A DNA stretch of 64,000 nt from the sequence record MG383452; one strand, written 5' to 3'. The notes below the pieces were generated by a model. It was given only the letters and a program-made list of their open reading frames with translations. It ran no database searches and had not been told where the DNA came from. A program made the position numbers and the translations under genes. Shown here in pieces: positions 44,539 through 60,978 of this stretch (position 1 is its first letter; each line of letters starts with the position of its first letter). The stretch is from Escherichia phage FEC14.

Positions 44539-44595
44539 AATATAGATCTCTCAAATAAAAGGCGGTTTAATAATAACCGCCCTAATGTTATTGAA

Positions 44596-45390: not shown

Positions 45391-45437
45391 GAAGTATTTC
45401 CTTTCAGTTCAATGGAAGTTAAATTTTAACCTGAAAA

Positions 45438-45758: not shown

Positions 45759-46444
45759 CTTTCGTTCTCCTTCATCATATTATCACAGTCAATTCTTGTT
45801 TGCTTGAGTTCACGGGCAAGCCTGGGATCATCAAGATTGACAGACAAATTAGTGGAAAGATCTTTCAAACCATTCTGAACACGGTCTTCATAATAATGAT
45901 CATTTTCCACCAGCCATGCTCTCAGGCCAAGGGCGCGAGTCCGCCATTCCTTTTTCAAACGTCGATCTGATTCTTGATCAGCACTGTATTCAAATACTCG
46001 GATACATTGGTTGCCATCATTGATGAGATCCAGCTGACGTCGGCCAACCTGCACACCTTTTTGTAATGCTGGAGAAGGAAGAGAACGGCACTGTCTTACG
46101 GTCATTCGTCCTTGTGTGCCCATACGACCAGTCATGATGAGATCGCCAGCCTCCATGCCTCCTCGATTAAATTCTTTGTCGTTCATATATCCTTTCAGGT
46201 TGAACGCGCCTTGCTTATATCGATTAAACTCAATACCAGCATTTACAACGGCATCTGTGACATTACCTGTGGCCCAGAGTTCAGCAAAGTTCTCTATGGA
46301 ACCAGTTTTGTCTATAGCGACGGCTTGGGAGAACCCAGCACAGTAGGAAAGATCAGACCACAGTTTTTCACCTGTGGAGTTCAGCTTGGCGGTGGCAGGA
46401 AGTGCCAGACCAGCCAGCACAACCCCGATGATTAAACGTTTCAT
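45755..46444 (-). CDS. secreted protein (229 aa) with signal peptide
   Basis: ATG 46444 with AAGGAG RBS; MKRLIIGVVLAGLALPATA signal; tracked ORF extends upstream. Confidence 0.45.
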   Translation of the reverse strand: MKRLIIGVVLAGLALPATAKLNSTGEKLWSDLSYCAGFSQAVAIDKTGSIENFAELWATGNVTDAVVNAGIEFNRYKQGAFNLKGYMNDKEFNRGGMEAGDLIMTGRMGTQGRMTVRQCRSLPSPALQKGVQVGRRQLDLINDGNQCIRVFEYSADQESDRRLKKEWRTRALGLRAWLVENDHYYEDRVQNGLKDLSTNLSVNLDDPRLARELKQTRIDCDNMMKENER

Positions 46445-46523
46445 GGTGATTCTCCTTATTTCATTGGATAAAATGATAGGGCTGTCACCATGTTGAGTAA
46501 AGGGTTTCAATAAACTATCGTAT

Positions 46524-46973
46524 TCAGAAACGGGTATCGCTGACCGTTCTGTATCGCACACCCTGAAACTGTTTAGCGAGTTTAACAAATTCCATCGCTG
46601 GCAAATCAACTTTGTAGACCTTCATGCGCTGTTTGCCGTCCATGTTCAACGCAGCGACAAATCGGTGAGACCCGTCAACAACGTAATTGTCAGAAGACAC
46701 CCAAACTCGACCCATGGGCTTCTTATTTCTGATCTGCTTCATAATCTTCCAGACCTTCATTTTATTGATTTCGTTCTGGGTAAGACGAAGCATTTTGATG
46801 GGCACTTGCGCAGCATCTATGGACACGCCGTTGTCTTCAAGATATTTGTGAAAATCTTCTTGTTTGTCGGCATCGATTTGCGGCATAGAAGAACGAGAAA
46901 GCCCGAGGTTCCCAACAGGAATCCTCAGGCCATTTATGATATTCATCCAGTCAATAAAGGATGTAAGGAACAT
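46524..46973 (-). CDS. ParB/Srx-fold nuclease-like domain protein
   Basis: 149 aa; YVVDGSHRFVAA resembles the DGxxR core of ParB-like/DUF262 nucleases. Confidence 0.4.
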   Translation of the reverse strand: MFLTSFIDWMNIINGLRIPVGNLGLSRSSMPQIDADKQEDFHKYLEDNGVSIDAAQVPIKMLRLTQNEINKMKVWKIMKQIRNKKPMGRVWVSSDNYVVDGSHRFVAALNMDGKQRMKVYKVDLPAMEFVKLAKQFQGVRYRTVSDTRF

Positions 46974-47010
46974 GACACACCTCGGGATATAGGGTTATCC
47001 CTTAGTTAGT

Positions 47011-47289
47011 TCATTCGGACTTAAACAGCAATTCGCGAACAGAAGTCCCAACGATATTTTGGGCGTTCAACAAACGAGTTAAATCATCCATGTCGTATGC
47101 TGAATTGGTGACATGGCCCAAGATAATCGCCAACATTCCCTCCAGCGCTCTCCGATTGTTATTCTCTTCAATGTCAAACTTAATTTCAACAAATCGAGAT
47201 AGCATTCTGGATTGAGCATGAGTTTCGTTGGTTTTGCTCTGTATAATATCTTTGATTTCCGAACGAGCAATACTTCTTTGATCTGTCAT
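47011..47289 (-). CDS. hypothetical protein (92 aa)
   Basis: ORF track; conserved upstream cassette. Confidence 0.45.
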   Translation of the reverse strand: MTDQRSIARSEIKDIIQSKTNETHAQSRMLSRFVEIKFDIEENNNRRALEGMLAIILGHVTNSAYDMDDLTRLLNAQNIVGTSVRELLFKSE

Positions 47290-47335
47290 GATATAGTTCC
47301 TTCATTTCAAATGGGCGGGGCAAAGATACCCCGCC
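47284..47335 (-). repeat. 5-prime cassette copy A: GGCGGGG stem-loop plus CATTTGAAATGAAGGAA RBS context
   Basis: near-identical to 47843-47894; hairpin GGCGGGG-CAAAGATA-CCCCGCC. Confidence 0.5.
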
Positions 47336-47341
47336 GTGGGT

Positions 47342-47848
47342 TTATAGGGTAACAAGTGATACGGTAAAAACCATCGTCCCATCTGTTGCCATTTTTCTTG
47401 AAACTGGGAAGACGCGAGGCTGACAGAATATCCATTCTTTCTCCATGGACGCCAAGTCCAGCATATCCATTTCTGATTCATCGCCTTTGTTCACAAATTT
47501 TTCTAGAGAACCAAAGACATTAAGCCCCTCTGGGAGTCCGTTTCGATGTTTATAACAAATGCGGGCAACAGCTTTGGTTCCATACGATTTAGAAAATTGT
47601 TTGGCCACATGCTTCAGTTCGCTGAAACTAAGACAAGAATCCCATGTCTGAAACATGTCTCCTCGTTCAAACATCATCTCCAAACGCGCAACGTCCTCTT
47701 TAGGCAACCCGCGATAAAGTGTGGTCATCTGCGGTTCGCGTAATTCTTGCACCAGACCACGGATGGCAGGGGAAACAGTGCCAGGGCGCATGATGTGGGA
47801 CTTATCATGGACGAGGTAAAATAAATCTTGAATTTGTTGATCGGTCAT
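47342..47848 (-). CDS. hypothetical protein (168 aa)
   Basis: ORF track; starts MTDQ like the downstream 92-aa gene. Confidence 0.45.
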   Translation of the reverse strand: MTDQQIQDLFYLVHDKSHIMRPGTVSPAIRGLVQELREPQMTTLYRGLPKEDVARLEMMFERGDMFQTWDSCLSFSELKHVAKQFSKSYGTKAVARICYKHRNGLPEGLNVFGSLEKFVNKGDESEMDMLDLASMEKEWIFCQPRVFPVSRKMATDGTMVFTVSLVTL

Positions 47849-47894
47849 GATGTATTTCCTTCATTTCAAATAGGCGGGGTAATCATACCCCACC
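47843..47894 (-). repeat. 5-prime cassette copy B: stem-loop plus TATTTGAAATGAAGGAA RBS context
   Basis: about 36-nt near-identity with copy A including first codons ATGAC(A/C)GATCAA. Confidence 0.5.
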
Positions 47895-47907
47895 CTAAGT
47901 TATAGAA

Positions 47908-48147
47908 TTAACTGATGTGCTTCAGAAGAGCGAAGAGGATCGCGGCCTTGGCTTTCACCTTTCCGACGACGCCTGTTTCGACGTCGACTTCTTCGGCAAC
48001 CCAATCTTTTCCCTTCTTGCTGATGATAACATCGCGGCGCTGGGCATATACTTCTTTGGTCGCATACACACGACGGAACCCTTTAGCGCGGAGCAAGCCC
48101 CAATTACGATCAATCTCCACTGAAGTTTCTACCATTTTGTTCTTCAT
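47908..48147 (-). CDS. hypothetical protein (79 aa)
   Basis: ORF track. Confidence 0.4.
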   Translation of the reverse strand: MKNKMVETSVEIDRNWGLLRAKGFRRVYATKEVYAQRRDVIISKKGKDWVAEEVDVETGVVGKVKAKAAILFALLKHIS

Positions 48148-48231
48148 GATATAATCTTACCTTTCAACCTGGTGAACCCATCGTTCGCCAGTTATTGAAT
48201 AATACGCATTTGCCTTATAGAAGTAAACCCC

Positions 48232-48264
48232 TAAAAGTAAAAATCCCCAACGTTTGTTGGGGAT
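48232..48264 (-). terminator. rho-independent terminator downstream of ACP-like gene
   Basis: ATCCCCAAC-GTTT-GTTGGGGAT hairpin followed by TTTTACTTTT on minus strand. Confidence 0.5.
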
Positions 48265-48270
48265 CTTCAG

Positions 48271-48603
48271 TTACTTGCGCAGGGCAACCACGTATTCGGC
48301 AAGTTCACCCATGGTCGGGTCGTCGCCTTTACCGCCCAGCCAGCCATCAGAGATCTCGACATTGAACTCTTCTTCTAGTTCCATGACGATTTCGATGGCA
48401 TCAAGATCGTCGCCGCCGAGGTCTTTCTTGGTGCGGAGGCCAGCCAGTTTATCCAGGGCGTCATTCATAATCACTTCCGCGTCGACGATGCCTTTGATGC
48501 TGCTCTTGTCTTCGTCACTGACTTCCAGGTTCAGATTGTCAGTGGCGTACTGAGCCAGGTGACGCATTACTTCAACATAAGTTGGTTTGTTTGACATAAG
48601 CAT
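48271..48603 (-). CDS. acyl carrier protein-like protein lacking the phosphopantetheine serine
   Basis: 110 aa; DLGGDDLDAIEIVMELEEEF aligns with E. coli ACP [20 protein letters not shown], Ser replaced by Asp; C-terminal extension. Confidence 0.55.
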   Translation of the reverse strand: MLMSNKPTYVEVMRHLAQYATDNLNLEVSDEDKSSIKGIVDAEVIMNDALDKLAGLRTKKDLGGDDLDAIEIVMELEEEFNVEISDGWLGGKGDDPTMGELAEYVVALRK

Positions 48604-48632
48604 ATCTCAAAATGAAGGCGGGTTTCCCCGCC
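48604..48632 (-). terminator. stem-loop/terminator (GGCGGG-TTTC-CCCGCC) of cassette family
   Basis: hairpin followed by TTCATTTTGAGAT and ATG of ACP-like gene. Confidence 0.45.
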
Positions 48633-48640
48633 AGTTGAAT

Positions 48641-50857
48641 TTAGATTTTGACTTCTTTTTCAGCCAGTTCGGCAGTGACAGTGTATTTCACCCCATCAAC
48701 TTCCACATCCATAGTGGATTCTTCCAAATCCAGGTCGGTAAACCAACCATGGCCTGCAACAATCCCATAAACTACCTTGGACAGCGTTTTGTTCAGAGAT
48801 CGAACTTCGTTGATAGCTGCTTTTGCTGCATCACCAATCCAACTTTCGATCAGCTTTTTCTGAGTCTCTTCCGGTACGCTGGTGATCATCGGCGATTTAA
48901 CAAACGCATTGTATTCGGCCAGGGCATTAGCGATCAGCTGATCAGCGACATTCAGTTTTTTACCGTCCGTCTGTTTTTTGATAACAGACGCGATGCTCGG
49001 CAGTGAAGATGCGCCTTTGATTTTCACATTCAATTCACGACTCATATAGACATCGGTTGATTCTACAGAAGAAGTCTTCGGTGAAAATCCATAGTCGCGA
49101 ATGCCGTTTGCTGACAGGAAATCAGCCGCTTCTTTGCCATATTTTGAAGCCAGACCAGTAGCGTTGCCTTTGCCAACCAGTTCATCACGGTAGAATTTCA
49201 GAACTTTTTGCTTTGCCTTCAATGCTTCACGGCGCACATTGTCTGCAAAGAATTCAGCAGCACTGATATTCTTTGTCATGGCGCGGTTAACCATTGGGAC
49301 ACTTTCCAGATTTACAATGAAGACTTCCGGCCCACCAAACACATGAACACCCATGGCAGTCAAATCCTGTGCCACCTTAGCCCGAATAATCGGAGAATCT
49401 GCAGTGATAGGCATTGTTTTCAGGTTGATGATACCATCCTTGACAATGGTGTAATTGCGATAACGCCAGGTTCCCAGCTCTTCAGGAAGTTCATATTTCT
49501 TCTGTACAAACTCAGGCACAACAACCGTTCCGTGTTGAACTGTCTGCACACTGATGTTAGGACGTTCTGAATTGTAGACCAAATTGCTGATCGGGACAAT
49601 CCCTTTATCATCTGCTGGATTGAATTCGGGGGTCCAATCTTCGTGCTCGGCCAGTTTGAGCGCCAGGGCTTTACGCTCTTCTTTAGAAGTCGCATTCGCA
49701 ATCTCTTCGGCCAACTTGTCTTCGGTGTCATCAACTTTCTGTACAGTACCGCGCCCAATGCTCTTGTAAGAGAATAGCGGATGCTTAGTGACAATAGAGA
49801 CATCTGCTTCAGCCAGATACGTCAGAACATCAACAATGGTGGTGGCGTCTTCAGCCGGAACCATATTATAATCGATGCCATCAACTCCTCGCAGAGATTC
49901 GTCTACGATAGCCTGGGTCAGATCGACTTTGATGTTGGAATAGTCCTGCTTGGTGAAACAGTTGCTGTATTGTTTGATGAAGCGGACGTCACCCGTTTTC
50001 TTCAGCGCAGCCCAAACCAAATCTGCGTCCATGGTATACACGCCGTAAAATGCCAGCACGTATGCCGCTTGGATGTCTGCCAGATTATCCAGCTGGTCGA
50101 TCATGTTGGGGTTTACAACCCACAGCTGAGAAACGCTTTCAGGGATGCTGACGTGGCCAATAGGGTGCTCTTCATCAGGATGCACAGCTAAAACAGTCGC
50201 CACGCCATTTTCAACATAAATGGCATGGGTGTAAACCAGGGGAACATCGACCACCACTTTCGGTGAAGAAGTTTTTAGCACGTTTTCCAATTCGGTCTGA
50301 TATTCATTCTGGCCTTCGGCGAATACGTGGGTCGCACCAGAACGTTCTGCCATTAGCGCCAGCAGTTCGCGATTACAATACCAACCGTATTCGATGAAGG
50401 TAATGTTATCAAACGCTTTGGGCAGTACTTCAGCGGCATCCAGGATTTCATTAGAACGCCAGCAGTTGTCATATCCGTCAGTCATGAATGCCAGGTTATT
50501 AACATAACCAGGTTTATTCAGGCTAATGGCAGTTTCCGCAGCCAATTTCAGCGGCTCAACAAAACCAGTACAACCAGAAGGCTTCAGGAAACGGTCAATT
50601 AGATTATTGATCTCAGTGAGATCAGTTGCACTGTTAATCTGACGTCCGGCAAATACCGTTCCGAAATCACCGCGAGATGAAAAGTAAAGGATGCTCACAG
50701 TATCTTCCGGTTTCACCAGGGAAGGCAGGTTCTCCTTCAGATGCTTACGGACTTCTGGAAGTGAACGATACATGGAACCGGAGATATCCACAACGATTAC
50801 ATGGTTAGACGGCGCGACGGTCGCAACCGCATTCTTAAATGTTAATGATTCAATCAT
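48641..50857 (-). CDS. von Willebrand factor A (VWA) domain protein (738 aa)
   Basis: N-terminal MIDAS-like VIVVDISGSMYRS; ATG 50857 with GAAGG RBS (tracked ORF starts at upstream GTG). Confidence 0.55.
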   Translation of the reverse strand: MIESLTFKNAVATVAPSNHVIVVDISGSMYRSLPEVRKHLKENLPSLVKPEDTVSILYFSSRGDFGTVFAGRQINSATDLTEINNLIDRFLKPSGCTGFVEPLKLAAETAISLNKPGYVNNLAFMTDGYDNCWRSNEILDAAEVLPKAFDNITFIEYGWYCNRELLALMAERSGATHVFAEGQNEYQTELENVLKTSSPKVVVDVPLVYTHAIYVENGVATVLAVHPDEEHPIGHVSIPESVSQLWVVNPNMIDQLDNLADIQAAYVLAFYGVYTMDADLVWAALKKTGDVRFIKQYSNCFTKQDYSNIKVDLTQAIVDESLRGVDGIDYNMVPAEDATTIVDVLTYLAEADVSIVTKHPLFSYKSIGRGTVQKVDDTEDKLAEEIANATSKEERKALALKLAEHEDWTPEFNPADDKGIVPISNLVYNSERPNISVQTVQHGTVVVPEFVQKKYELPEELGTWRYRNYTIVKDGIINLKTMPITADSPIIRAKVAQDLTAMGVHVFGGPEVFIVNLESVPMVNRAMTKNISAAEFFADNVRREALKAKQKVLKFYRDELVGKGNATGLASKYGKEAADFLSANGIRDYGFSPKTSSVESTDVYMSRELNVKIKGASSLPSIASVIKKQTDGKKLNVADQLIANALAEYNAFVKSPMITSVPEETQKKLIESWIGDAAKAAINEVRSLNKTLSKVVYGIVAGHGWFTDLDLEESTMDVEVDGVKYTVTAELAEKEVKI

Positions 50858-51020
50858 CGTTATTACCTTCTTTAGTGGTATGGACGGCTTCACCTTCCGG
50901 CTTCGCCAGCATGTGTTCTATGAATTCGCGATTAGTTTCAATCTGTTGGATTAAAACTTCGCTGGGTTTAAACTGTGAGTCAAGAGAGTCAACTCCTGAA
51001 CGCAAAAATGGTTTGGTCAT
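50850..51020 (-). CDS. small ORF (56 aa), translationally coupled
   Basis: unlisted frame MTKPFLRSGVDSLDSQFKPSEVLIQQ...; start 1 nt after upstream stop, stop overlaps VWA start (ATGA). Confidence 0.3.
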   Translation of the reverse strand: MTKPFLRSGVDSLDSQFKPSEVLIQQIETNREFIEHMLAKPEGEAVHTTKEGNNDD

Positions 51021-51021
51021 A

Positions 51022-51381
51022 TCAATTCCCTTTCACTTCCATGACACCAGAAATATTCTTCAGGGCTTCACGGACTTCCGACGCCTTATCTTTCTTTACA
51101 ATCACAACAATGAAAGAAAAGTTCTTTTTCTTACGCCAATTCTTGAAATGAGTGACCAACTGGATATCTTTCTCTTCAGCACCACTTTCTCCAGCTACAG
51201 GGATATAAACTGTGCCTGACTCAATTACGACATCAGCATCGTCTGGAATATTTTCATCGAGTTCTTCACGGTATTCTCCATTAACTTTGACGCAATGATC
51301 ATCGTGCCAAGCACCCTTTTCCCAATATTCGTCATCGTTATAGTAGGCGTTGAATTCAACACCTTTCATTTTTACGGACAT
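51022..51381 (-). CDS. hypothetical protein (119 aa)
   Basis: ORF track. Confidence 0.45.
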   Translation of the reverse strand: MSVKMKGVEFNAYYNDDEYWEKGAWHDDHCVKVNGEYREELDENIPDDADVVIESGTVYIPVAGESGAEEKDIQLVTHFKNWRKKKNFSFIVVIVKKDKASEVREALKNISGVMEVKGN

Positions 51382-51481
51382 GATTTCCTCGCTTTACAAT
51401 TGGACCATTATACCTTGGCTTGTTAATTGAAACGCCCAGCAATTTGCCGGACGTTATTGATTTTGAAAGACTTTTGAAGAA

Positions 51482-52207
51482 TTACAAGTAGGACACCACG
51501 ATGGCTCTATACAGCGCCCCCACGGAATCATCAGGTTCGGCTTTCGGATCTAACAAGAATTTCTTAACACGATCACAAGCTGCTTGGCGTTTGTCTTCTG
51601 ATAGGTCACACCACGGATAATCCCCTGAAGCAGCATTACACGTTTTCGCCAAACGCAAGACAAGTTCAGAATTTAGTTCTTCAGAAGTCATGAACGAGCG
51701 AAGATACGCTTCCACCAAAGATCTTGCTTCACCATTACGTCGTTCGTTATAACGTTCATTATCGGTGCGAACAAATTCAACTCGAAATCCCCGACTTGGA
51801 TCCTTGGGATGACGAAACACGACGGATTGTCCTTTACCCTTAAGGAATTCAGAACCACCCATCTCATGTATCGCTTCCCTTTCTGACACATATTCATCAA
51901 TGTTGATCTTAGCATCTTTGACGGACACATCGATGATCTGCTTTTCTACCATCGCGCGATATGCTTCTAGTTCCCACAGCTGGGAGAAGGTCTTTTCATA
52001 GGCCAGTTTCTTACCCAACTCTTCATCAAAGTTGGCTGGGTCGATAGAAGTTGAACTATTCTTACCCCACACAACGAACCCATTGTCCATCTTGAAATGG
52101 CATGTAATGACGCGGTGACCACCAACTTCACGGTCTTCATAAATCACTTCAGCAATATGTGACTTCAGAAGTTCTGGTGTGAGTTTAATCCCTTCACGAT
52201 TACCCAT
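51482..52207 (-). CDS. hypothetical protein (241 aa)
   Basis: ORF track. Confidence 0.45.
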   Translation of the reverse strand: MGNREGIKLTPELLKSHIAEVIYEDREVGGHRVITCHFKMDNGFVVWGKNSSTSIDPANFDEELGKKLAYEKTFSQLWELEAYRAMVEKQIIDVSVKDAKINIDEYVSEREAIHEMGGSEFLKGKGQSVVFRHPKDPSRGFRVEFVRTDNERYNERRNGEARSLVEAYLRSFMTSEELNSELVLRLAKTCNAASGDYPWCDLSEDKRQAACDRVKKFLLDPKAEPDDSVGALYRAIVVSYL

Positions 52208-52451
52208 TATTCACCCCCACTTTCACCAAACGATCCAGTAATTGGTAAATCTTGCGGGGACAACGCCTTAAATCTTCATCCGACAGATATAGCACTTCGG
52301 TCTGAATATCTTTAAAAGTTGAAAGGTTATTCAACTCAGATTCGACGACGGTTTTCAATTGCGTATACGCTTCATCGCAATAATTTCGGCGGTTGCAATC
52401 GGTCATTACCTGAGATAACTTTTCAAAAGATTCTTGTATTTCCTTTGACAT
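52200..52451 (-). CDS. hypothetical protein (83 aa)
   Basis: ORF track. Confidence 0.4.
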   Translation of the reverse strand: MSKEIQESFEKLSQVMTDCNRRNYCDEAYTQLKTVVESELNNLSTFKDIQTEVLYLSDEDLRRCPRKIYQLLDRLVKVGVNNG

Positions 52452-52833
52452 CGTTTGACACCTCTAGTTGGTCACACACAGATATTACTTTACGGCACGT
52501 GTCGATATCGAATAAACCGATATGGCAGTCGCGTTTCTTGATCCCCAGATTATGAGCCAGCCAGCTGTAAGCATCACTCCTGCTCCTCTGCCCACTTTTC
52601 CAGATAGGGTCAAACGACCTATGAGCTTCCTGCTTAGCAGCACGGAGAGCGGCATTCGCCATCCTTCCCAGAGGTTGTCTACCATCCCCATGGGTATGGC
52701 AACCCACACGAGCGTCGCATGGCGAGCATACCCAAAACTTCAGTTTGTGTAGATCTGGGCGATGAGGGTAGAGTACATCACCCCCGACGTATTTGGCAGG
52801 AAGGCCGCAGTAATCACAGATGACAGGTTTCAT
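52423..52833 (-). CDS. zinc-finger (CxxC...CxxC) protein
   Basis: start MKPVICDYCG; second pair CSPCD; upstream GTG start would lie inside terminator hairpin. Confidence 0.4.
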   Translation of the reverse strand: MKPVICDYCGLPAKYVGGDVLYPHRPDLHKLKFWVCSPCDARVGCHTHGDGRQPLGRMANAALRAAKQEAHRSFDPIWKSGQRSRSDAYSWLAHNLGIKKRDCHIGLFDIDTCRKVISVCDQLEVSNDVKGNTRIF

Positions 52834-52841
52834 ATTCTTTG

Positions 52842-52870
52842 TCCAAAAGAAACCCCGCACACGGCGGGGT
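52842..52870 (-). terminator. rho-independent terminator
   Basis: CCCCGC-ACACG-GCGGGG hairpin followed by TTTCTTTTGG on minus strand. Confidence 0.45.
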
Positions 52871-52892
52871 TGCTCAGGCCGGAGCCGACAGA

Positions 52893-53264
52893 TTATTTCA
52901 ACAGAGCTTCCAGTTCTTCAAGAGATTTACCTTCAAGCTCCTGCTGTTTCTTACGCTGGATCAGTTCCAGAATAACCTGGTTGTTCGCTTTACGTTCGGC
53001 GGCGGTTGCGCTTTCGTCACGTTCTTTCAGTTTAACACCGATGATCGCTTTCACGATATCGAAACGCAGTTGTAACTGAGAGTCGACTGCGCTTTTCACG
53101 CCGATGAAATCTTCTTCATCGCTGGCGGCTTCCTTCACCTGACGGCTGAGGTCTTTCGCCAGTTCGTTTAGGGCATTCAGGTTCAGATCCCAAACCTGCT
53201 CAACAGATAGCAGACCTTTGTTAGAGTTGAAACGCAGTTTTAAACGGGTTGCTTGATCAAACAT
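52893..53264 (-). CDS. hypothetical protein (123 aa)
   Basis: ORF track. Confidence 0.4.
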   Translation of the reverse strand: MFDQATRLKLRFNSNKGLLSVEQVWDLNLNALNELAKDLSRQVKEAASDEEDFIGVKSAVDSQLQLRFDIVKAIIGVKLKERDESATAAERKANNQVILELIQRKKQQELEGKSLEELEALLK

Positions 53265-53301
53265 TTCATTGTTCCTTATTACGAATTTGTGGTCAAATCA
53301 A

Positions 53302-55320
53302 TTAGAAGATGACTTTTACAGTACGGTTAAACGCGCCGGACACTTTGACGAACACGTGGTTGCGTTGCGTCGTTGAGAATCCCAGACCGGACAGTTGGTT
53401 TTCATTCGGCTGGACTTTCATTTTACTACCCAACATTTCAAAAACCTTACGATGTTTATCCAGTTCCGGCTTCAGATATTCGTTGTAGAAACCACGAGTA
53501 CCTTCAGGATTAGCACAGCCTTCAAGAATGAAGAACACATGCTTGTTACCAGTTTGCTCCCCATCCCAATGGTTTGGTGAATTCAGAACCAGCTGTACTT
53601 TCTGGAAGGTCGCAGTCTTGATACCCCAAACTTCTTTAGACTTATCAACATTAGCCAGTTCGGACTTAATGCTAACGACTTGTTTGTCTTTAACAGTCAG
53701 GATGACTGCAGTGATACGCCCCTGATCTTTCAGGCCAGGATGGCTGAAACGATGCGTTGCGCCTTTGTATTCTACTTCGACTTCAAACCCTTCGTCGATC
53801 TTTTCACGTTGATTGTAGTTGTGGATTTCGAAACGGTATTCACCATCGCGCAGCTTGCTTTCATCTGTAAAGATGATATTTTCCACCGGAGCGCGGTTTG
53901 GATCAATACCATCCATACCGTTCATATCGATATCCAGATGGGCACCTGTCATAGAGCGACGATCACGGAAGTACACGTGCTCCATATTGTTAAAGAACAT
54001 ATGAAGATCGAGGTCGTCGTTATTGTGCCACGCCAAGGAAACGCGCAGATACCCGTCAACTTTACCACCAGCAGCCTTTACACGTTCTTTAATGGAATCG
54101 GTCACTTCACCGTTGTAAGACCAGGAGAACCCGTTGTTCCACTTGAACAGGTTAGGCGCATCTGGGTTCGCCGGAGCAACCAGGGACATCAGGTTGCTAG
54201 TATGAGAATTCTCTACAAGCACTTCCATTGAATGCGCTTTTGGCAGAACATTGCTCAGGAAATCATCAACGCTGATCTCTTCAACTTTTTCCAGGGACTT
54301 GGTCGGAGTTTTCACTTCGGCGGCCAGCTGTGCAAACGGATCCATCGCTTTCTGAGCAGCCAGATCTGCGAACAGAACGTTGTTGATTGTCAGATCATCG
54401 TAAACCGCATAACGACGCGCCAGTGAGTCTTCCAAACCCAGAGCAATAACTTCTTTCTGAGCGTTTTCGATCATGGATTTTGAAACCAGCGCTGTCGGAC
54501 GTTTGTAGTTCGCCGGAGCAACTTTGGATTCAAACGATTTAACAGCCTTTTCCAGTTCCACGCCTTCGCTGATATCTGTCAGCAGAGTGCCGATAACTGT
54601 GTTACGGATGCCGTGTGGAACATGATTGTTTGAACGGTATCCAGTATGCCATGCCCACAGAGAACGGGCTGATTCGGGGATTTGTTCATACGCTTTTTTG
54701 GTTTCAACAAATCCCTTCACTGCTGCTTTGTGTTCTGCGCCGCGATACAGAGAATTCTGGTCAATCAGTTCCAGAACGATTTCAGCTGATTCCAGAGTAA
54801 TTTCACGCAGACCGCGTTCAAACAATTCAATAGCCTGGCGGATTTCACCTTTTTTCGAAGCGATTGCGTCCGGACGCAGAACATAGCTACCCAGCAGGTC
54901 GGTGTGGAAGTGGTTGTAGGTGCGGACATTGCCGTCTTTCATTTCGTGATTCGACTCAACACCGACTTTCTTGGTATCGTTGAAGTACACGTCGACGATT
55001 ACGTGTTGCTTGACATACGCAGACAGCGCCGCAGCCACCACGTCATATTCATTACCCAGATCAATGTTGTCCCAGATAGAAATTACGTTCAGGTCGGAGT
55101 CGATGGTGATCACACCGCCGATGTTACGGATGAATTGTTTACAGCAGGTGCAGTCGTGCTCAGTACGCTCACGGTAGAGCGGGTTGGTACCAGCAGGGAA
55201 AGATGCCAGATACAGATCCCAAAGAGCATCTTTATCGATATTGGTCATGAACAGACCAGTTGCGGACATCGCCAGCACGTTGTTATTAACTGCCGTTGCG
55301 AAGGGTTTGAATTCTGCCAT
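53302..55320 (-). CDS. large hypothetical protein (672 aa)
   Basis: ORF track; no motif recognised by eye; lies in the operon downstream of regA. Confidence 0.55.
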   Translation of the reverse strand: MAEFKPFATAVNNNVLAMSATGLFMTNIDKDALWDLYLASFPAGTNPLYRERTEHDCTCCKQFIRNIGGVITIDSDLNVISIWDNIDLGNEYDVVAAALSAYVKQHVIVDVYFNDTKKVGVESNHEMKDGNVRTYNHFHTDLLGSYVLRPDAIASKKGEIRQAIELFERGLREITLESAEIVLELIDQNSLYRGAEHKAAVKGFVETKKAYEQIPESARSLWAWHTGYRSNNHVPHGIRNTVIGTLLTDISEGVELEKAVKSFESKVAPANYKRPTALVSKSMIENAQKEVIALGLEDSLARRYAVYDDLTINNVLFADLAAQKAMDPFAQLAAEVKTPTKSLEKVEEISVDDFLSNVLPKAHSMEVLVENSHTSNLMSLVAPANPDAPNLFKWNNGFSWSYNGEVTDSIKERVKAAGGKVDGYLRVSLAWHNNDDLDLHMFFNNMEHVYFRDRRSMTGAHLDIDMNGMDGIDPNRAPVENIIFTDESKLRDGEYRFEIHNYNQREKIDEGFEVEVEYKGATHRFSHPGLKDQGRITAVILTVKDKQVVSIKSELANVDKSKEVWGIKTATFQKVQLVLNSPNHWDGEQTGNKHVFFILEGCANPEGTRGFYNEYLKPELDKHRKVFEMLGSKMKVQPNENQLSGLGFSTTQRNHVFVKVSGAFNRTVKVIF

Positions 55321-55433
55321 GGTATAGTCTTCCTGTTTCAGTTCAAAGTGAGCGCCCTTATCGGGGCGCGTCGTTAAAGTGAGGTCAATATATACGTTGA
55401 AAAAGTTATTGAAGAACGAAGTAACGCGATTCT

Positions 55434-56690
55434 TTATTCAGGTTTCTTCAAACGATCTAATAAATTGACCGATCCGCGATTGAGGACAATTTCATCGCAT
55501 CGATTTTTGTATCTCCCGCCTCCATCATAACCGACCTTGCCGCGTGGCTTTTCCCCTCTCTCGATAGCCTCAACACAGCGGGTGTACTTGCTCAATTCAC
55601 AGAACATGTTCTCCAGCTGCATGACGTTCATGCACTGATCTTCCGGCGCTTCGGCTGACCAGAACTGCTCTTGGACATAACCATACTGAGCAAACAATTG
55701 ATACTGATGATCACGAACCCAGAATATGCATTCTTCATGAGTCATGCCGTCCTTATCCAGGAACATCAGGTCAATACCCGCACGGCAACCTGGACCAGCA
55801 ATAGTGAAATGATTCTCACTGAATGGATATTCATCGATGTATGTAAAATCAACCCAAATCTGGTATGCCAAGAATGGTCCAAGCCCCTCAATGTCGTCAT
55901 ACATCGCCTGGTAAACAGAGTCGGGACGGCTAAATTCCCTGAGGCGATCAAAGTAATGAGGGTGTTTGTTGACGAATGCCTTCAAAGAGCGAATGACTCG
56001 CATCGGCATGTATGGTTCCCAGCCTTCTATTTTGTATTCACCAGGATTATCTTCGGCCAGCTTCTTGGCAACCTTGTAATCCATTTCATCTATAACACCA
56101 CCCACCCGATGGACTTTTACCTTCATGCCGCCAAAGCGTTGCTCCTTATGGTTGACAACCAGTTCAGGGAAAGCTAGGCATTGTTTCAGACCGCCTGTAT
56201 TAAACGCATTGGTGAAAACTTTGCCACCTTTAGATTCGAATTCCTGAAGAACATCTCGACACCATTCAAGATTTATGTTTCCGAATTCTTCGATCGTCCA
56301 TGGACCACCCAAAGCCTGTATAGGTTCCCACATGTTGTACATGCGGAACAATACACAGTTAAACATTTTGTCAGATAGCGTGAGATCCTGATCGAGGATG
56401 ATATTATTGATCAAATTTCGAGACTGCCTATCGTGCTCTCTCCGGACGTTACAGAACTTGACCTGCCGTAGTATGGGATTATCCGTCCAAGGAGCAGGAA
56501 GACGCTGGACGTCCTTTCTCACGTGGATCTTATAACGCTCGCTCATCCATTCGTATGCGAGTTGTTTATGGAATGGGCTTAACATGGGATGTGCAGATTT
56601 AATTTTAACTTCCCGAACACCGCAATAAGGAATGTCACACGGTTTATCTTTCATGGTATCCTCTCTAGAATACAAAAAAACAGAGGCCAT
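55434..56690 (-). CDS. hypothetical protein (406-418 aa); candidate DNA-modification enzyme by context
   Basis: ORF track; alternative ATG at 56654 with GAGG RBS; first ATG sits in terminator loop. Confidence 0.5.
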   Translation of the reverse strand: MASVFLYSREDTMKDKPCDIPYCGVREVKIKSAHPMLSPFHKQLAYEWMSERYKIHVRKDVQRLPAPWTDNPILRQVKFCNVRREHDRQSRNLINNIILDQDLTLSDKMFNCVLFRMYNMWEPIQALGGPWTIEEFGNINLEWCRDVLQEFESKGGKVFTNAFNTGGLKQCLAFPELVVNHKEQRFGGMKVKVHRVGGVIDEMDYKVAKKLAEDNPGEYKIEGWEPYMPMRVIRSLKAFVNKHPHYFDRLREFSRPDSVYQAMYDDIEGLGPFLAYQIWVDFTYIDEYPFSENHFTIAGPGCRAGIDLMFLDKDGMTHEECIFWVRDHQYQLFAQYGYVQEQFWSAEAPEDQCMNVMQLENMFCELSKYTRCVEAIERGEKPRGKVGYDGGGRYKNRCDEIVLNRGSVNLLDRLKKPE

Positions 56691-56703
56691 TATAGCCTCT
56701 GTT
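56673..56703 (-). terminator. rho-independent terminator
   Basis: CAGAGGC-CATTATA-GCCTCTG hairpin followed by TTTTTTTG on minus strand. Confidence 0.5.
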
Positions 56704-56725
56704 GTTTAGTGAATAACGGATTATA

Positions 56726-57595
56726 TTAATCGAAGCGAGAGAGGTGTGTCACAGTGTTTTGAACAGGTGCGCACGCGTATACACGAACATTAGCACCCCA
56801 CACCCCACACAGCTTAGGCATATTGGTATCGTTAATGATATACGCTGGCACATAACTTTCAATTTGGCCGTTAACATCTACGGGTCGAGAAGATTTTTCA
56901 ACTGCCATAGAAAGAATTATTTCCAACGTTTTTGGAGATACCAACGCCACGCCGTTCAAATCATCAACAAATACCTGACCTTCTTCAATTGCCATGCTGG
57001 CAACGATGTCATTGATCTGACGGGAAGGGGTATTCGTCAGCATATCAGAGAAATCAGGCTCTTTGAACACAGCCATGTTTTTCAGGAATTTTCCTTTCGG
57101 ATATTCTTTGCCATTCCACATCACAGTCTCATTCACTTTGATGCATGCCTGAGGGAATTCACCTTCAACACGTAACTGGCCATCTGGGAAACCGCGTGAA
57201 TAATAATATTCCAGTGCCGGACCGACTTCATCTTCTGAGCGAATAAATTTGCTCATGTTGGAGGCATAAACACGCTGCAAGCACTCATCGCCGTTGAAAC
57301 CAGCAATGTGTGCCACGCCGTCATTGACTGTTGTGATGTCGCCCTGAGCGTCCAAAATCTGGCGCATAATGTCTTTGATGTCGACAACAGCAGGTTCTTT
57401 CAGGACTCGCGGAGATGCAGTGAACTCAATTTTCACCTCGTGGTCGAAATAAGCCGCTTCCAGTAATTCGCGGGTCTCTTCCAGAACCAGTTTGGCCTGA
57501 TTGCGAATTTTACCGAAGTCAGGGGCTGTAATATCTCCAGCCGCATTACCAAAAGCCAAATTCAATCTCACGTTTTTATTAAATGTAGTTGTCAT
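56726..57595 (-). CDS. hypothetical protein (289 aa)
   Basis: ATG 57595 (MTTTFNKN...) with GGAG upstream; longer tracked ORF would overlap regA by 71 nt. Confidence 0.45.
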   Translation of the reverse strand: MTTTFNKNVRLNLAFGNAAGDITAPDFGKIRNQAKLVLEETRELLEAAYFDHEVKIEFTASPRVLKEPAVVDIKDIMRQILDAQGDITTVNDGVAHIAGFNGDECLQRVYASNMSKFIRSEDEVGPALEYYYSRGFPDGQLRVEGEFPQACIKVNETVMWNGKEYPKGKFLKNMAVFKEPDFSDMLTNTPSRQINDIVASMAIEEGQVFVDDLNGVALVSPKTLEIILSMAVEKSSRPVDVNGQIESYVPAYIINDTNMPKLCGVWGANVRVYACAPVQNTVTHLSRFD

Positions 57596-57611
57596 AATAT
57601 AGCGACTCCAG

Positions 57612-58007
57612 TTATTCGCTTTTTGCCCGACTTGGGCGAATAGTGTATTTTGGAACCAATTTCCACTCAGAAACTTGGTCATGTTTTACAACTTTGATCC
57701 GAGACATGTCAGCCACTTCGGTTATTTGTTCCGGATGCAAGATCTTAACCATATTCCATTGCTCCAGAAGCCGTATAATCCGATTCATACGCAGGACATC
57801 TTCACGCGTAAAGCCGTTGTAGTGCCCATCTAGCATGAACAAATGCTTGAAATGCACGATGTGATATCTGCCAAATTTATGCAGGATATGGCACGTTTGA
57901 TACAAGGTGTTAGGCTCTTGACGAGTGTTAACCCCTATCCGACTCAGCGTTTCCTTGATACCCAGGAAAATCCCTGGTTTGTCTTGGTTCAATTGAACTT
58001 CAACCAT
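57612..58007 (-). CDS. regA: RegA translational repressor
   Basis: LYQTCHILHKFGRYHIVHFKHLFMLDG and EWKLVPKYTI match T4 RegA; start at MVEVQLNQ aligns with T4 MIEITLKK (tracked ORF has 23 extra codons). Confidence 0.7.
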   Translation of the reverse strand: MVEVQLNQDKPGIFLGIKETLSRIGVNTRQEPNTLYQTCHILHKFGRYHIVHFKHLFMLDGHYNGFTREDVLRMNRIIRLLEQWNMVKILHPEQITEVADMSRIKVVKHDQVSEWKLVPKYTIRPSRAKSE

Positions 58008-58105
58008 ACAGTCAACAATGCTGGCCTCATCGTTGACAGCTGAAAGTTTTAAGATGTCCAGCGTATTACGCGCCATGACTCATACCCCTTTAACAATTAT
58101 TTGAA

Positions 58106-58528
58106 TTACTTAGCCTTGCGCGGTTTGGCTTTTTCGTTGCTGTTGGAACGTTCGACCTTCGCCTTGATTTCAGCCAGGACTTCTTTCGGCAGGAATCGAA
58201 CATATTCTGAAGCCTTTTCAGGACTGATGTAATAATACTCAGAAATCAATTTCACATCAGGATCCATAGCTCCCTTCTTAGACCACTTGTCATAGCGACG
58301 TTTTGCCGGAATGCTATGAAACGCCAGGTTCCATTGCATCCAAGGAGTAATGGCATGGAAGCGGTTCATTTGTTCGGCAACCACAAGCGTGTCTTTACTC
58401 TGAGCAAGGCCGCGCCGAGTCATGAAAGGATCAAATGCCTTTCTGATTTCGGGGTCTTCGGTCATCAACAGATTCTCTTTGGTGCTATTCAACGCACCGA
58501 GGTAATCGAACAGTGACGGAGCGGCCAT
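58106..58528 (-). CDS. 62: clamp-loader small subunit, gp62-like
   Basis: 140 aa; position between 44 and regA; PAKRRYDKWSKK resembles T4 gp62 PRGKRYGKWAK. Confidence 0.6.
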   Translation of the reverse strand: MAAPSLFDYLGALNSTKENLLMTEDPEIRKAFDPFMTRRGLAQSKDTLVVAEQMNRFHAITPWMQWNLAFHSIPAKRRYDKWSKKGAMDPDVKLISEYYYISPEKASEYVRFLPKEVLAEIKAKVERSNSNEKAKPRKAK

Positions 58529-58532
58529 AATA

Positions 58533-59522
58533 TTACTTCCATTTGATGTTGAGCATGACGTTAGTCAAGAAGTAAACGCCGTGTAACCAGACGTCGCCGA
58601 CGGAACGATGTTCAATCTGAGACTGACCACAGACGCATACCAGATCAGGGATTGACTCGTTTTGAATCAAAGGAGTCTTTTCCTTGTTCTGGGGAACGCA
58701 GAAATGGAAGAAACGGGAATAAAAATCTTCAGTGATGTAGTTTTGGTTGTCGGTCACCCACTGCTTCATCCCAGCCCAATCATTGGTTTTCAGGAAATCA
58801 ACCAACGCTTGGAATTCCCCTGCTTTAACCTGTGCCAGAGCGCGTTCATCGATTTTACCAAACGTGGTGGCATTATCCTGAAGAGTTCCCATAATTTTGC
58901 GATTATCTGGGAAATATGATTTCACAATGGAAGCAATTACACCAGCTTCATACGGAATGCCTTCCTCTGTCAGGATAGTTGCGCAACGACGCATGAATTG
59001 GAGTTTAACTTCATCTGCTTCCTTTTCAGACCAGATAAAATCAATTTCACGACAGCGGGAACGCAGAGGTTCATTAACGCGCTGTTTCGCATTAGTCGTC
59101 AGGATGAAGGAGCAGTTTTTGGAGACTTTCTCTACGATGCCTTTCAGGGATTCCTGTGCCGCCATGGAAAGTCGCTCAACTTCATCAAGGATAACGACTT
59201 TGCGGCCACCGAAAACACTGACGCCAGTTGCGTATTGAATAACGCGGTCACGAATGACATCAATGCTGTTATCCAGTGACGCATTGATCATCAACGGTTT
59301 GATACAACCGATTTCGTTACACACAGCCAGAGCAGAAGTAGTCTTGCCCGTACCAGGCTGAGGGGAATAGAACAGCATTGAGGGGATGTTTCCATTGCCT
59401 GATGTAACATAGCCATGGATTTTTGCACGGACGTCTGAAGGGAGGACGATCTCATCCAGATTGTCAGGGCGATATTTGTTTTCCCACGCATATTGATCTG
59501 TGACGATAGTGATGTTAGACAT
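58533..59522 (-). CDS. 44: clamp-loader AAA+ ATPase, gp44-like
   Basis: 329 aa; WENKYRPDNLDEIV, P-loop PQPGTGKTT, DEVERL, SRCREI match T4 gp44/RFC. Confidence 0.85.
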   Translation of the reverse strand: MSNITIVTDQYAWENKYRPDNLDEIVLPSDVRAKIHGYVTSGNGNIPSMLFYSPQPGTGKTTSALAVCNEIGCIKPLMINASLDNSIDVIRDRVIQYATGVSVFGGRKVVILDEVERLSMAAQESLKGIVEKVSKNCSFILTTNAKQRVNEPLRSRCREIDFIWSEKEADEVKLQFMRRCATILTEEGIPYEAGVIASIVKSYFPDNRKIMGTLQDNATTFGKIDERALAQVKAGEFQALVDFLKTNDWAGMKQWVTDNQNYITEDFYSRFFHFCVPQNKEKTPLIQNESIPDLVCVCGQSQIEHRSVGDVWLHGVYFLTNVMLNIKWK

Positions 59523-59540
59523 TGCAGCCTCTTTAGATAA

Positions 59541-59569
59541 AACGTTTCAAAGGGCGGGGAAACCCCGCC
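59541..59569 (-). terminator. stem-loop/terminator GGCGGGG-AAA-CCCCGCC downstream of gene 45
   Basis: perfect 7-bp GC-rich stem then CTTTGAAACGTTTT on minus strand. Confidence 0.5.
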
Positions 59570-59599
59570 ACCGATAATAAAGCACCGAATCGTTATTGA

Positions 59600-60268
59600 T
59601 TAATCCAGCTGCATGCCGACGTAATAGTTGATGGTGCCGTCTGCGGATTGGAAGTTAACCAGTTGCATTTCGGCACAGGCGCGGATCACATAGTTGCCTT
59701 CGATCATTTTCAGGTTGACCACATCAACAGGCATAGCAAAATCACCCAGAGTTGTTTCACCCAACTCAACAGTGTAATCGTTGGAATTGTCGATAGTAGT
59801 AGTCGTGCCCACCAGACGAGTTTTACCGCCGCTGGCAACCAGACGTACAGTTTTGTGGCCCAGAGTAGAACAGGCGCGGGTCAGCTCTTTCATTTTTTCA
59901 GGAGTGACTGTTGCTTCAAATTCTACAGACGGGAGATCGATGCTGTCTGCCGGAACGACAGTCAGTTCTTTAGCGGAACGCCAGAATTGCAGTTGGGAGT
60001 TTTCACCTTTCAGCAAAATGTGGTCTTCCGACATTTCAATTTTACCGCCTTTAAAACTCGGCAGACGCTGGATTGCCAGCAATTTGGTCAGATCCAGAAT
60101 CGGGAATTCGAACGGGAAGTCTTCGTCAATGTCGGCAATAGCGATAACTGTACTGGAATCGTTAACAGTGCGCAACTTTTTACCAGGTGCCAGAACGATA
60201 GAGGGGCAGATGGTTTCAAAGTTAGCCAGCAGTTGTAAAGTGCGTTCGGAGAGAGTGATCTCTTGCAT
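59600..60268 (-). CDS. 45: sliding clamp, gp45-like
   Basis: 222 aa from MQEITLSERTLQLLANF (T4 MKLSKDTTALLKNF) with GAGGA RBS; tracked ORF begins at upstream TTG. Confidence 0.85.
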   Translation of the reverse strand: MQEITLSERTLQLLANFETICPSIVLAPGKKLRTVNDSSTVIAIADIDEDFPFEFPILDLTKLLAIQRLPSFKGGKIEMSEDHILLKGENSQLQFWRSAKELTVVPADSIDLPSVEFEATVTPEKMKELTRACSTLGHKTVRLVASGGKTRLVGTTTTIDNSNDYTVELGETTLGDFAMPVDVVNLKMIEGNYVIRACAEMQLVNFQSADGTINYYVGMQLD

Positions 60269-60283
60269 TAGTTGTATCCTCAA

Positions 60284-60607
60284 AATATAGTGGGGTTCAA
60301 GTCATATTTGACGCAAATTAGTATCGCGTGTTTGTAGTTATAGAACAAGTGATAAATTGCCCTACGCGCGATAAATAAATGCCTGACGGCATTTATAATA
60401 TTCTGTTTTAATAAAACCTTTCTTTATCAGTCTACTCGCTTCGCTCGTGATAATACTCGTTGCTCGCAAAGCTCACAACTCGTATATTACGCACGGATTG
60501 TTCAACAAGAAAGCGATTTTTATTCAACAAGTAAAATATTTTATTTGGTCTAAACAGAGCATGACATTATTATGTAGCCAAGTTTGCTAACACGTGAGAA
60601 ATAATAT
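60284..60607. promoter_or_regulatory. AT-rich divergent control region upstream of gene 45 with palindrome over a TATAAT and CTCG-repeat array
   Basis: TAAATGCC-TGAC-GGCATTTA palindrome at 60376-60395 overlapping TATAAT 60394-60399; repeated (T/A)ACTCG(C/T)T motifs 60430-60490. Confidence 0.3.
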
Positions 60608-60973: not shown

Positions 60974-60978
60974 AATGG

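Follow-up and report, generated by a model that had tools for sequence, protein, structure and literature searches.

Promoter-early stem-loops (PeSLs) have been described in the T4-like phages RB49/phi1, T4/PST, and KVP40/nt-1 (PMC2839356, PMC4122927), and those of RB49/phi1 fall into subclasses in which the stem-loop lies over the -35 box, over the -10 box, or just downstream (PMC2839356). PeSLs contain a strong early promoter of the sigma-70-like kind (-35 box, -10 box, and an AT-rich region upstream), occur as numerous conserved copies mainly ahead of small genes without assigned function in plastic regions, and are characterized by experiments on promoter and terminator activity and on mini-circle formation. 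For ViI-like phages, the CBA120 paper reported that its authors were unable to identify early (and middle) transcription signals (PMC3184105), the LIMEstone paper listed only predicted promoters and terminators (PMC3296691), and a motif TTCAAT[N14]TATAAT has been published (PMC7283392). Composite units or PeSL-like elements in Ackermannviridae or ViI-like phages were not described in the literature that we searched. Here we analyze a stretch of 64,000 nucleotides from Escherichia phage FEC14 (record MG383452), referred to here as the window, and four of its minus-strand intergenic elements, E1 to E4, in which a GC-rich stem-loop precedes the start of a gene. Our data indicate that E1-E4 are probably intercistronic hairpin-leader cassettes of the early-gene region which serve as recombination seams, swapping ready-to-express genes by the PeSL mechanism and often doing so without a promoter. 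The original prediction, which took them for PeSL-like mobile regulatory cassettes, appears to have been largely right in spirit, and would extend the PeSL idea to another family without adding a new principle.

Judged from its sequence, the window comes from a Kuttervirus of the family Ackermannviridae, a ViI-like phage that is only distant kin of T4, and the T4-type genome in which the elements had been placed was not borne out in the strict sense. Region 46900-49000 shares 99.5% identity with Salmonella phages SS3 and SS9 and 97-99% with Escherichia phages PhaxI and CBA120. Homologues related to T4 gp45, gp44, gp62, RegA, gp55, gp33, UvsX, UvsY, and gp46/47 occur in these phages, and between 44 and 60 kb nearly every gene lies on the minus strand. 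PeSLs reside in T4-type (Straboviridae) genomes; the cassette studied here was seen only in Ackermannviridae records.

We found all four elements on the minus strand at the reported coordinates, and they comprise one tight pair (E1/E2) and two looser relatives. The E1 hairpin (47314-47335) has 9 bp, GGCGGGGUA-ucuu-UGCCCCGCC; read from 47335 to 47314 it is GGCGGGGtatctttgCCCCGCC, and cATTTGAAATGAAGGAACTATATCATG comes next. Its leader, a translation initiation region (TIR) at 47278-47313, comprises cATTTGAAATGAAGGAACTATATC, the ATG (47289-47287), and the MTDQ codons of a gene of 92 amino acids (aa). The E2 hairpin (47872-47895), GGGUGGGGUA-ugau-UACCCCGCCU, has 10 bp including G·U pairs, with GGTGGGGtatgattaCCCCGCC at 47894-47873 and then tATTTGAAATGAAGGAAATACATCATG, and its TIR (47837-47871) comprises tATTTGAAATGAAGGAAATACATC, the ATG (47848-47846), and the MTDQ codons of an ADP-ribosyltransferase-like (ART) gene. 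The stem of E2 is as had been described, except that its supposed single mismatch is a G·U pair. The window contains two exact stems of the form GGCGGGG-N(2-12)-CCCCGCC, while shuffled sequences predict 0.00, and E1 and E2 form a 65-nt direct repeat with 83% identity (repeat family D2). The near-identical copies of about 36 nt that reach the MTDQ codons were confirmed, with 32/36 leader positions matching, including ATGAC(A/C)GATCAA, and 44/52 over the coordinates used earlier.

E3 (48617-48632; GGCGGG-gaaa-CCCGCC with a T-rich tail) lies between a vWA gene (50893-48641) and a gene for a protein like an acyl carrier protein (ACP-like; PF00550), is terminator-like, and is fixed in position; it reads GGCGGGgaaaCCCGCC and then ttcATTTTGAGatATG, with the tail ttcATTTTGAG..ATG. 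E4 (59553-59569; GGCGGGG-uuu-CCCCGCC) lies between the gene for the gp45 clamp and that for the gp44 clamp loader and reads GGCGGGGtttCCCCGCC and then cTTTGAAAcg...AAAGAGGctgcaATG, with AAAGAGG ahead of the gp44 ATG (59522). Only the stem and a looser T-rich/TTTGA tail are common to E3, E4, and the E1/E2 pair. The string (C/T)ATTTGAAA, which all four were said to share, is exact in E1 and E2, but E4 has CTTTGAAA and E3 has CATTTTGAG; the E3 tail in relatives is TTTCAGG or TTTGGG. A Shine-Dalgarno (SD) sequence, AAGGA or AGAGG, is located 6-9 nt before the ATG in E1, E2, and E4, while the SD of E3 is weak. As in PeSLs, the 3' end of the element is the SD and start codon of the next gene.

The evidence for recombination is our strongest result, with recombinant junctions located inside the cassettes. 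A search with 46990-48160 returned 270 related records with stereotyped homology breaks. The ART cargo gene (47342-47848, minus strand; 168 aa) is bracketed by E2 and E1 and is absent or replaced in relatives. In phages allotria and selz, the match spans 612 bp compared to 1171 bp in the window, and the 559 bp lost equal the E1-E2 spacing exactly. The ART gene is gone at the allotria junction, where the E2 hairpin (loop TATGATTA) is joined to an E1-type leader and the 92-aa gene; this fusion places the crossover within CCCCGCCTATTTGAAAT. In ECML-4, a Vi01-type leader is joined to the 92-aa gene, so that denV was lost via the common CTATATCATGAC. Allotria and ECML-4 thus each retain one chimeric cassette and are without the 559-bp ART module. 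Vi01, GG32, moki, and many others contain denV in place of ART between the same flanks. Homology to ChubbyThor and fGh-Ecl02 starts at query position 297, which is window position 47286 (the E1 ATG), and homology to Dickeya phages and Ag3 resumes at 854-856, which is 47843-47845 (the E2 ATG). The same cassette precedes at least five genes in different phages, namely ART (MTDQQ; 65 records), denV (MTRIN; at least 57 records), the 92-aa gene (MTDQRS), a 124-aa gene (MKKLIL), and another open reading frame (ORF). The E2-type cassette was found in 232 records, all of them Ackermannviridae-like and in no other group, and 52 of these contain two copies.

An Agtrevirus-like IMG/VR contig, which holds our loci L020 and L045 and whose gp44 is 83% identical, contains at L020 (1384-2362) a 979-bp block that is 96% identical to window 47286-48264, while its flanks are 76-84% identical. 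One edge of the block is the E1 start codon and the other, at 48264, is the base with which the terminator-promoter hairpin begins; the block looks like a recent between-lineage transfer of the segment consisting of promoter unit, 79-aa gene, E2, ART, and E1. ChubbyThor resembles L020, with 94% identity over window 47286-48160. The unit at the far edge (48190-48264, minus strand) is a true PeSL-like terminator-promoter-leader unit with the terminator hairpin AUCCCCAAC-aaac-GUUGGGGAU and a sigma-70-like promoter, TTTACT-17-TATTAT (48227-48199), leading into the leader GGTTGAAAGGTAAGATTATATCATG of the 79-aa gene (48147-47908). In Det7, SJ3, and KE31, two direct copies of the 48264-48190 unit, each of approximately 75 nt, flank an extra 79-aa gene (alignment A1). 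In the comparison with SS9, homology persists as an 83-nt island, with replaced genes on both sides, at the promoter-leader cassette of 19158-19240, and it begins again exactly at 31942, the edge of the cassette at 31942-32038. Thus the coincidence with boundaries that characterizes PeSLs was found for E1, E2, and the 48264 unit and was not seen for E3, and mobility was seen only for E1, E2, and this neighboring promoter-stem-loop unit. Since stretches of 18-65 nt are nearly identical between copies, we propose that the cassettes serve as homology patches for the phage recombination machinery (the UvsX, UvsY, and gp46/47 homologues are encoded in the window) and that genes would therefore be lost, gained, or exchanged as ready-to-express modules.

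We found that the hairpins are supported at the RNA level. In folding predictions all four elements form the expected stable hairpins, with the SD and AUG unpaired; the fold energies range from -13.8 to -20.9 kcal/mol, in keeping with the stable poly-G/poly-C-type stem of PeSLs, and a 62-nt region of E1 folds with -19.3 kcal/mol (z = -2.7). A gap-free alignment (A3) of 13 distinct sequences from the E1/E2 positions of Kuttervirus, Agtrevirus, Limestonevirus, and Taipeivirus has standard pairs in 99.1% of the cells of the 9-bp helix, compared to only 44-63% when the partner is slid by 1-3 columns. Double compensatory changes are present at two pairs (GGCGAGG/CCUCGCC in Ag3 and GACGGGG/CCCCGUC in May), and the single-side changes (n = 11) all yield G·U on the coding strand. 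Since the same changes produce an A·C mismatch on the other strand, an mRNA hairpin is more likely than a DNA cruciform or a protein-binding site on double-stranded DNA. The E4 hairpins of four lineages have altered yet complementary stems, including GGCGGGG/CCCCGCC in Kuttervirus, GGGCGG/CCGCCC in L051/52, and GCAGGGGC/GCCCCTGC (also written GCAGGGGC/GCCCCUGC) in Taipeivirus-like loci, and TTTGAA is invariant; the E4 orthologues (aligned with MAFFT, A2) are too gapped for formal pair counts, and their covariation is described from the sequences only. The E3 stem in phage May is GCCGGG/CCCGGC. Rfam 15 contained no relevant family for 44000-64000 at E <= 1, the only match being RsmY (E = 0.59) elsewhere in the region. 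In L020 and L025, the loop of the hairpin at the E1 position is TAATCATA; in reverse complement this matches the E2 loop exactly, so this whole hairpin is an inverted copy, which may have been caused by template switching or by recombination within the inverted repeat.

E1-E4 are members of a wider set of composite units found across the family and assembled from up to four parts: a sigma-70-like promoter, a GGGG..CCCC stem-loop, the leader (T)TTGAA-AGGA-CTAYATC-ATG, and the first codons ATGAC. Repeat finding recovered the leader half (TTGAAW..CAGGAACTAYATYATGA) without a GGCGGGG hairpin at 19185-19157, 31970-31942, and 25609-25586. The motif TA[TC]A[TC][TC]ATG occurs 19 times in the window compared to 3.4 expected from shuffles, and with an upstream T[TC]GA[AT] it occurs 7 times in the window (0.25 expected) and 13 times in SS9 (1.0 expected). 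In the complete SS9 genome, the motif with an SD and T[TC]GA[AT] is located at more than 12 real gene starts, with about 13-20 leader-bearing starts. TTTGA or TTGAA lies within 12 nt 3' of 15/142 hairpins compared to a background of 3.6%, and TTTGAA is better conserved across genera than the SD or the spacer.

Some starts with the motif, in SS9, lie approximately 45 nt after (G)TTTACT-N16/17-TATACT sigma-70-like promoters with an embedded TTCAATAA, and others directly follow a GC hairpin (window 55369, 47894, 47335, and 44583; in SS9 also 17142). Among the latter, the hairpin-leader cassette at 55318-55369 (minus strand) comprises GCGCCC-cgauaa-GGGCGC and tcaCTTTGAACTGAAACAGGAAGACTATACCATG, with TTCAATAA-N11-TATATA approximately 20 nt upstream (55411-55388). 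The cassette of 44583 (44536-44596, minus strand) reads TTCAATAA-N12, stem GGCGGUU, a loop with the -10 box TATTAT, stem AACCGCC, and TTTTATTTGAGAGATCTATATTATG, and homology with Vi01 breaks off 5 nt away from its TIR. The promoter-leader cassette at 19157-19260 (minus strand) contains the same TIR (AAATTGAATAGCAGGAACTATATCATGA) after a hairpin and TTTACT-N17-TATACT, and that at 31942-32038 (minus strand) contains a hairpin, AAAGGGGC..GCCCCUUU, overlapping the -35 box, then TATAAT and the leader CTTGAAAAGCAGGAACTACATTATG. There are at least 10 promoter-stem-loop units. A second promoter class, TTCAATAA-N12-TATAAT, often has its -10 box in the loop of a GGGG..CCCC stem and corresponds to the published TTCAAT[N14]TATAAT motif. 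Sites of this class are located in SS9 (L002-L004) at 21706, 26324, 29317, 61613, 68946, and 106886 and in the window at 44559-44596, and the distance from the TTCAATAA box to the -10 box is similar to the MotA box spacing of T4 middle promoters, although MotA/AsiA are reportedly absent from these phages.

In sense RNA, each cassette would present a GC-rich hairpin, then an A/U-rich tract with TTTGA(A), the SD, and the start codon. The hairpin could partially terminate or attenuate transcription and also protect the RNA end, and the leader would be an efficient, unstructured translation-initiation region. The terminator role claimed by the original prediction may suit E3, which is terminator-like, but is doubtful for E1 and E4: the T-tail scores are 0.91 (E1), 1.53 (E4), 2.26 (E2), and 2.65 (E3) compared to 2.5-4.4 for canonical terminators in the window. 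By the usual U-tract measures (5 or more T within 8 nt, or else a high T-tail score), E3 passes the scan, E2 and E3 have borderline scores, and E1 and E4 fail. E3 homologues are annotated as 'terminator' in phages May and Maynard, as is the E2 homologue in KWBSE43-6. E2 and E3 would thus be partial terminators at best and E1 and E4 poor ones, and a role in protecting the RNA end or in insulation seems as plausible as attenuation.

A promoter scan detected no sigma-70 promoter at E1-E4, while the neighboring units 48264-48190, 19260-19157, and 32038-31942 have this feature of PeSLs. E1 is preceded by TTTTAC-N17-TATAAA, without the conserved final T, and E2 and E3 by a -10-like hexamer only; such hexamers lie 4-5 nt before each stem (TATAAA in E1, TATAAC in E2 with TATAAT in Vi01, TAAATT in E3, and TATTAT in E4). 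Upstream of E4, the promoter-like box aTCAATAA-N13-TATTAT (59574-59600, minus strand) ends 4 nt before the hairpin. Its -10 part is kept in four lineages with diverging flanks (TATTAT, TGcTATAAT, TAATAT, TATAAT), and Agtrevirus/Limestonevirus-like loci have aTCAAT-N14-TGcTATAAT, whose extended -10 fits the published motif; this extended -10 promoter is convincing only in the sister genera. With a start approximately 7 nt after the E4 -10 box, the gp44 mRNA would begin directly with the hairpin, which is probably the 5' end of a transcript starting at that box. Ag3, May, and Det7 contain other units of promoter, hairpin, (T)TTGAAA, and SD, with the hairpin 10-12 nt past the -10 box, so the hairpin-leader appears to be a module used both behind promoters and between cistrons. 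Other candidate signals were rejected. TTGAAA as the -35 box of a downstream promoter has no -10 box at 16-18 nt in E1, E2, E4, or their orthologues; a T4-middle-like TTTGAAA-N11-TATCAT would begin transcription inside the ORF; and late promoters are only near misses at E1 (CTATAAAC) and E3 (CTAAATTC), which precede early-type genes, CTAAATA sites being those that precede late structural genes in SS9. Inspection of the tails by eye revealed no match to an RNase E site (consensus RN|WUU).

Several observations weigh against our reading of E1-E4. The positions of E3 and E4 are conserved across genera without cassette-mediated exchange, and the only insertion at E4 is a GIY-YIG homing endonuclease in L045. 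Window-wide, cassettes are located in 9/24 breakpoint intergenic regions (SS9, Vi01) and in 15/67 others, a positive trend that is not significant (odds ratio 2.1, p = 0.12, one-sided Fisher test) and that was obtained with a crude gene model and with many breakpoints due to homing endonucleases. The claim that mobile cassettes mark boundaries is supported for E1, E2, and the 48264 unit but not for E3 and E4, and over the window as a whole the association is not significant. The genome-wide motif search gave a similarly divided result, with the leader above chance at gene starts but only five GGCGGG..CCCGCC stems in the 156-kb SS9 genome, so that this stem is not an abundant genome-wide motif. 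The covariation is supportive, short of proof, with a small sample of related sequences; the T-tails of E1 and E4 are weak, and the terminator scan lists only E3. Finally, the literature that we searched holds no transcript, termination, stability, or translation data for Ackermannviridae, and all RNA-level functions are for this reason inferred. Homing endonucleases also left traces of their own. The GIY-YIG gene (L045:291-1001) directly follows the E4 cassette and took over the gp44 leader, and in a LIMEstone-like locus (L046, ~908-1000) only its last ~50 nt are kept, among them a stray CTATATCATG that lies 12 nt ahead of the gp44 start. SS9 contains homing-endonuclease genes (HNH and others, 540-1050 bp) that are absent from the window at ~2135-2144, 6209, 19233-19240, and 55441-55522, which explains several cassette-free indels.

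The points just listed bear on whether the elements are simply ordinary, independent terminators or stem-loops with their own ribosome binding sites, alike through constraint (a GC stem and an A/U-rich leader) and with recombination incidental. We regard this as rather improbable. Phage indels fall between genes anyway, annotators of relatives call the E3 and E2 homologues plain terminators, and the window-wide association, the fixed E3 and E4, and the rarity of the stem would all suit it; however, it sits poorly with 65 nt at 83% identity that include the first four codons of unrelated proteins, with a leader motif over-represented 5-28x, with junctions inside common sequence and a deletion equal in size to the repeat spacing, with a 96% block whose edges are cassette edges to the nucleotide, and with E1 and E4 lacking an adequate U-tract. 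The weak U-tracts speak against termination and would suit complete PeSLs, in which the -10-like box before every hairpin is a functional promoter and the hairpin is an ompA-type 5' stabilizer and not a terminator. The E4 box conserved in four lineages despite diverging flanks, its fit to the published motif in Agtrevirus-like loci, the promoter-bearing units of Ag3, May, and Det7, and the several SS9 TTCAATAA-N12-TATAAT promoters with the -10 box in a GGGG..CCCC loop point the same way. We nevertheless consider complete PeSLs unlikely, since E1-E3 lack an acceptable, properly spaced -35 box, TG extension, or TTCAAT box, the -10 boxes of E1 and E2 lack the conserved last T, the scan finds no promoter at any of the four, and AT-rich hexamers are common in intergenic DNA. 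Conservation of the -10 boxes is ambiguous because they overlap stop or C-terminal codons.

The hairpin and the invariant UUUGAA might together be a dedicated Ackermannviridae post-transcriptional signal and a promoter-independent linker for integron-like exchange, distinct from PeSLs; a specific factor (a phage RNA-binding protein or the ribosome) would then read it, so that it determines the translation of a family-wide early regulon as well as its 5' ends or stability, and fixed hot spots such as the site after the 79-aa gene would accept at least five alternative genes. We hold this to be doubtful. Still less probable, in our judgment, is a protein operator, that is, UUUGAA and/or CUAUAUCAUGA at the start codon bound by an RNA-binding regulator such as RegA, with the genes forming a co-regulated early regulon. 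T4 RegA binds A/U-rich unstructured sites over the AUG of ~30 early mRNAs (PMC3014915). A RegA homologue is encoded at 58076-57612 (PF01818, E = 4e-35), the motif is found on early-type genes after sigma-70-like promoters, and TTTGAA is better conserved than the SD or spacer, but the TIRs of orthologues of T4 RegA targets (45, 44, 62, regA, rIIB, dexA) are mostly without CTATATCATG, so that this check gave no support; the motif is also unlike the T4 consensus AAAAUUGUUAUGUAA obtained by SELEX (PMC3014915), and concerted evolution by recombination could give conservation without a binding factor. Site-specific recombination, with the hairpins as attC-like folded DNA targets of a dedicated recombinase or nuclease, we consider extremely improbable. 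The authors who described PeSLs speculated that the GGGG..CCCC stem is a protein target (PMC2839356), and the inverted loop of L020 and L025 and the many alternative cargos at one locus could be read this way; yet no integrase or recombinase was found near the locus, G·U pairs only on the sense strand favor RNA over a DNA cruciform, and the crossovers vary, from hairpin-to-TTTGAAAT in allotria to CTATATCATGAC in ECML-4 and the promoter unit in Det7, which is what exchange driven by homology should produce.

The cargo genes of the cassettes are small, and their function is mostly not assigned by Pfam or PHROGs. The gene after E1 (92 aa, 47289-47011, minus strand) matches phrog_4458, and the ART after E2 matches phrog_832, an RNA polymerase ADP-ribosylase (E = 1e-15, PHROGs); the ART, 79-aa, and 92-aa proteins have no matches in Pfam. 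The full 92-aa gene is annotated in Det7, CBA120, and Vi01, while the SS9 RefSeq record splits it into a 41-aa ORF and an opposite-strand ORF (L001:13112-13453, which is SS9 109302-109643). The ACP-like protein after E3 (48271-48603, minus strand) reads DLGGDDLDAIEIVMELEEEF and contains Asp at the position of the phosphopantetheinylated Ser of acyl carrier proteins (DSLD), so that it may not work as a carrier; among relatives its gene is a mosaic with two allelic N-terminal halves and two alternative leaders (alignment A1). A 119-aa ORF at 51022-51384 (minus strand), which SS9 and Vi01 lack, is an insertion downstream of a TTCAAT-N13-TATAAT box and is flanked by two short repeats that resemble an SD, AAAGCGAGGAAAT and AAAGGGAATTGAT. 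A separate small hairpin, GGGATAAcccTATATCCC (46974-47010, minus strand), adjoins the SD (GAGGTG) of a 149-aa gene and is kept at orthologous sites in Kuttervirus, Agtrevirus, Limestonevirus, and Taipeivirus.

Ackermannviridae (ViI, CBA120, Det7, LIMEstone, and relatives) are widely used in biocontrol and phage therapy. Our analysis provides, for this family, a catalogue of composite promoter/stem-loop/leader units, evidence of RNA-level selection on the hairpin, and natural recombinants in which the units are seams for swapping ART and denV (host takeover and repair) within and between genera. Our data suggest that the PeSL model of modular shuffling extends beyond T4-like phages and that the homology linker need not hold a promoter. 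The cassettes also offer engineers safe places to insert payloads and ready-made leaders with which to express them.

Compared to known systems, the cassettes have parts in common with several. Their hairpins resemble Rho-independent terminators in being GC-rich, past a stop codon, and followed by T residues, and E3 meets the pattern scan; unlike terminators, just 3 of the first 8 nt are T in E1 and E4, the hairpins sit within apparent operons with the next start codon 20-35 nt further on, and in some relatives the hairpin is immediately downstream of a promoter. Stem-loops in the 5' untranslated region stabilize mRNA in the case of E. coli ompA, and the T7 gene 10 leader AAGGAGATATACATATG, with its upstream A/U-rich enhancer, is used in pET vectors. 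The cassettes share with such leaders the order of hairpin, single-stranded A/U-rich tract, SD, A/U-rich TAYAT spacer, and AUG, and E4, with its predicted start at the hairpin base, resembles the ompA type, while the hairpin of E1/E2 would be internal to a polycistronic RNA unless processed. The leaders at 47846-47871 and 47287-47313 (minus strand), AAGGAA(A/C)TA(C/T)ATCATG, resemble the T7 gene 10 leader, which is consistent with selection for very efficient translation initiation. E4 and the cassettes of 55369 and 44583 carry TTCAAT(AA)-N11-15-TATAAT-like boxes as in the published ViI-like motifs, but in the literature that we searched those were reported as sequence strings only, without the stem-loop, the common leader, or a link to shuffling. 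As with morons and integron cassettes, genes enter intergenic sites one at a time, each as a self-contained expression unit; here, homologous flanking linkers take the place of illegitimate recombination (morons) or of integrase and attC (integrons). The closest likeness is to PeSLs, which are also repeated intergenic composites with a GGGG..CCCC stem-loop that end in an SD and the start of small early genes, mostly of unassigned function, and lie where close relatives differ by an insertion, deletion, or replacement. The occurrence of cassette-gene-cassette arrangements in some phages and a single chimeric cassette in others fits the published excision/insertion model, and promoter-bearing versions with all three stem-loop placements are found in the same genome. 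The cassettes differ from PeSLs in residing in Ackermannviridae and not Straboviridae, in the lack of a recognizable sigma-70 promoter at E1-E3, and in that the conserved part is the hairpin and leader (TTTGAA..AGGA..CTAYATCATGAC) and not the promoter.

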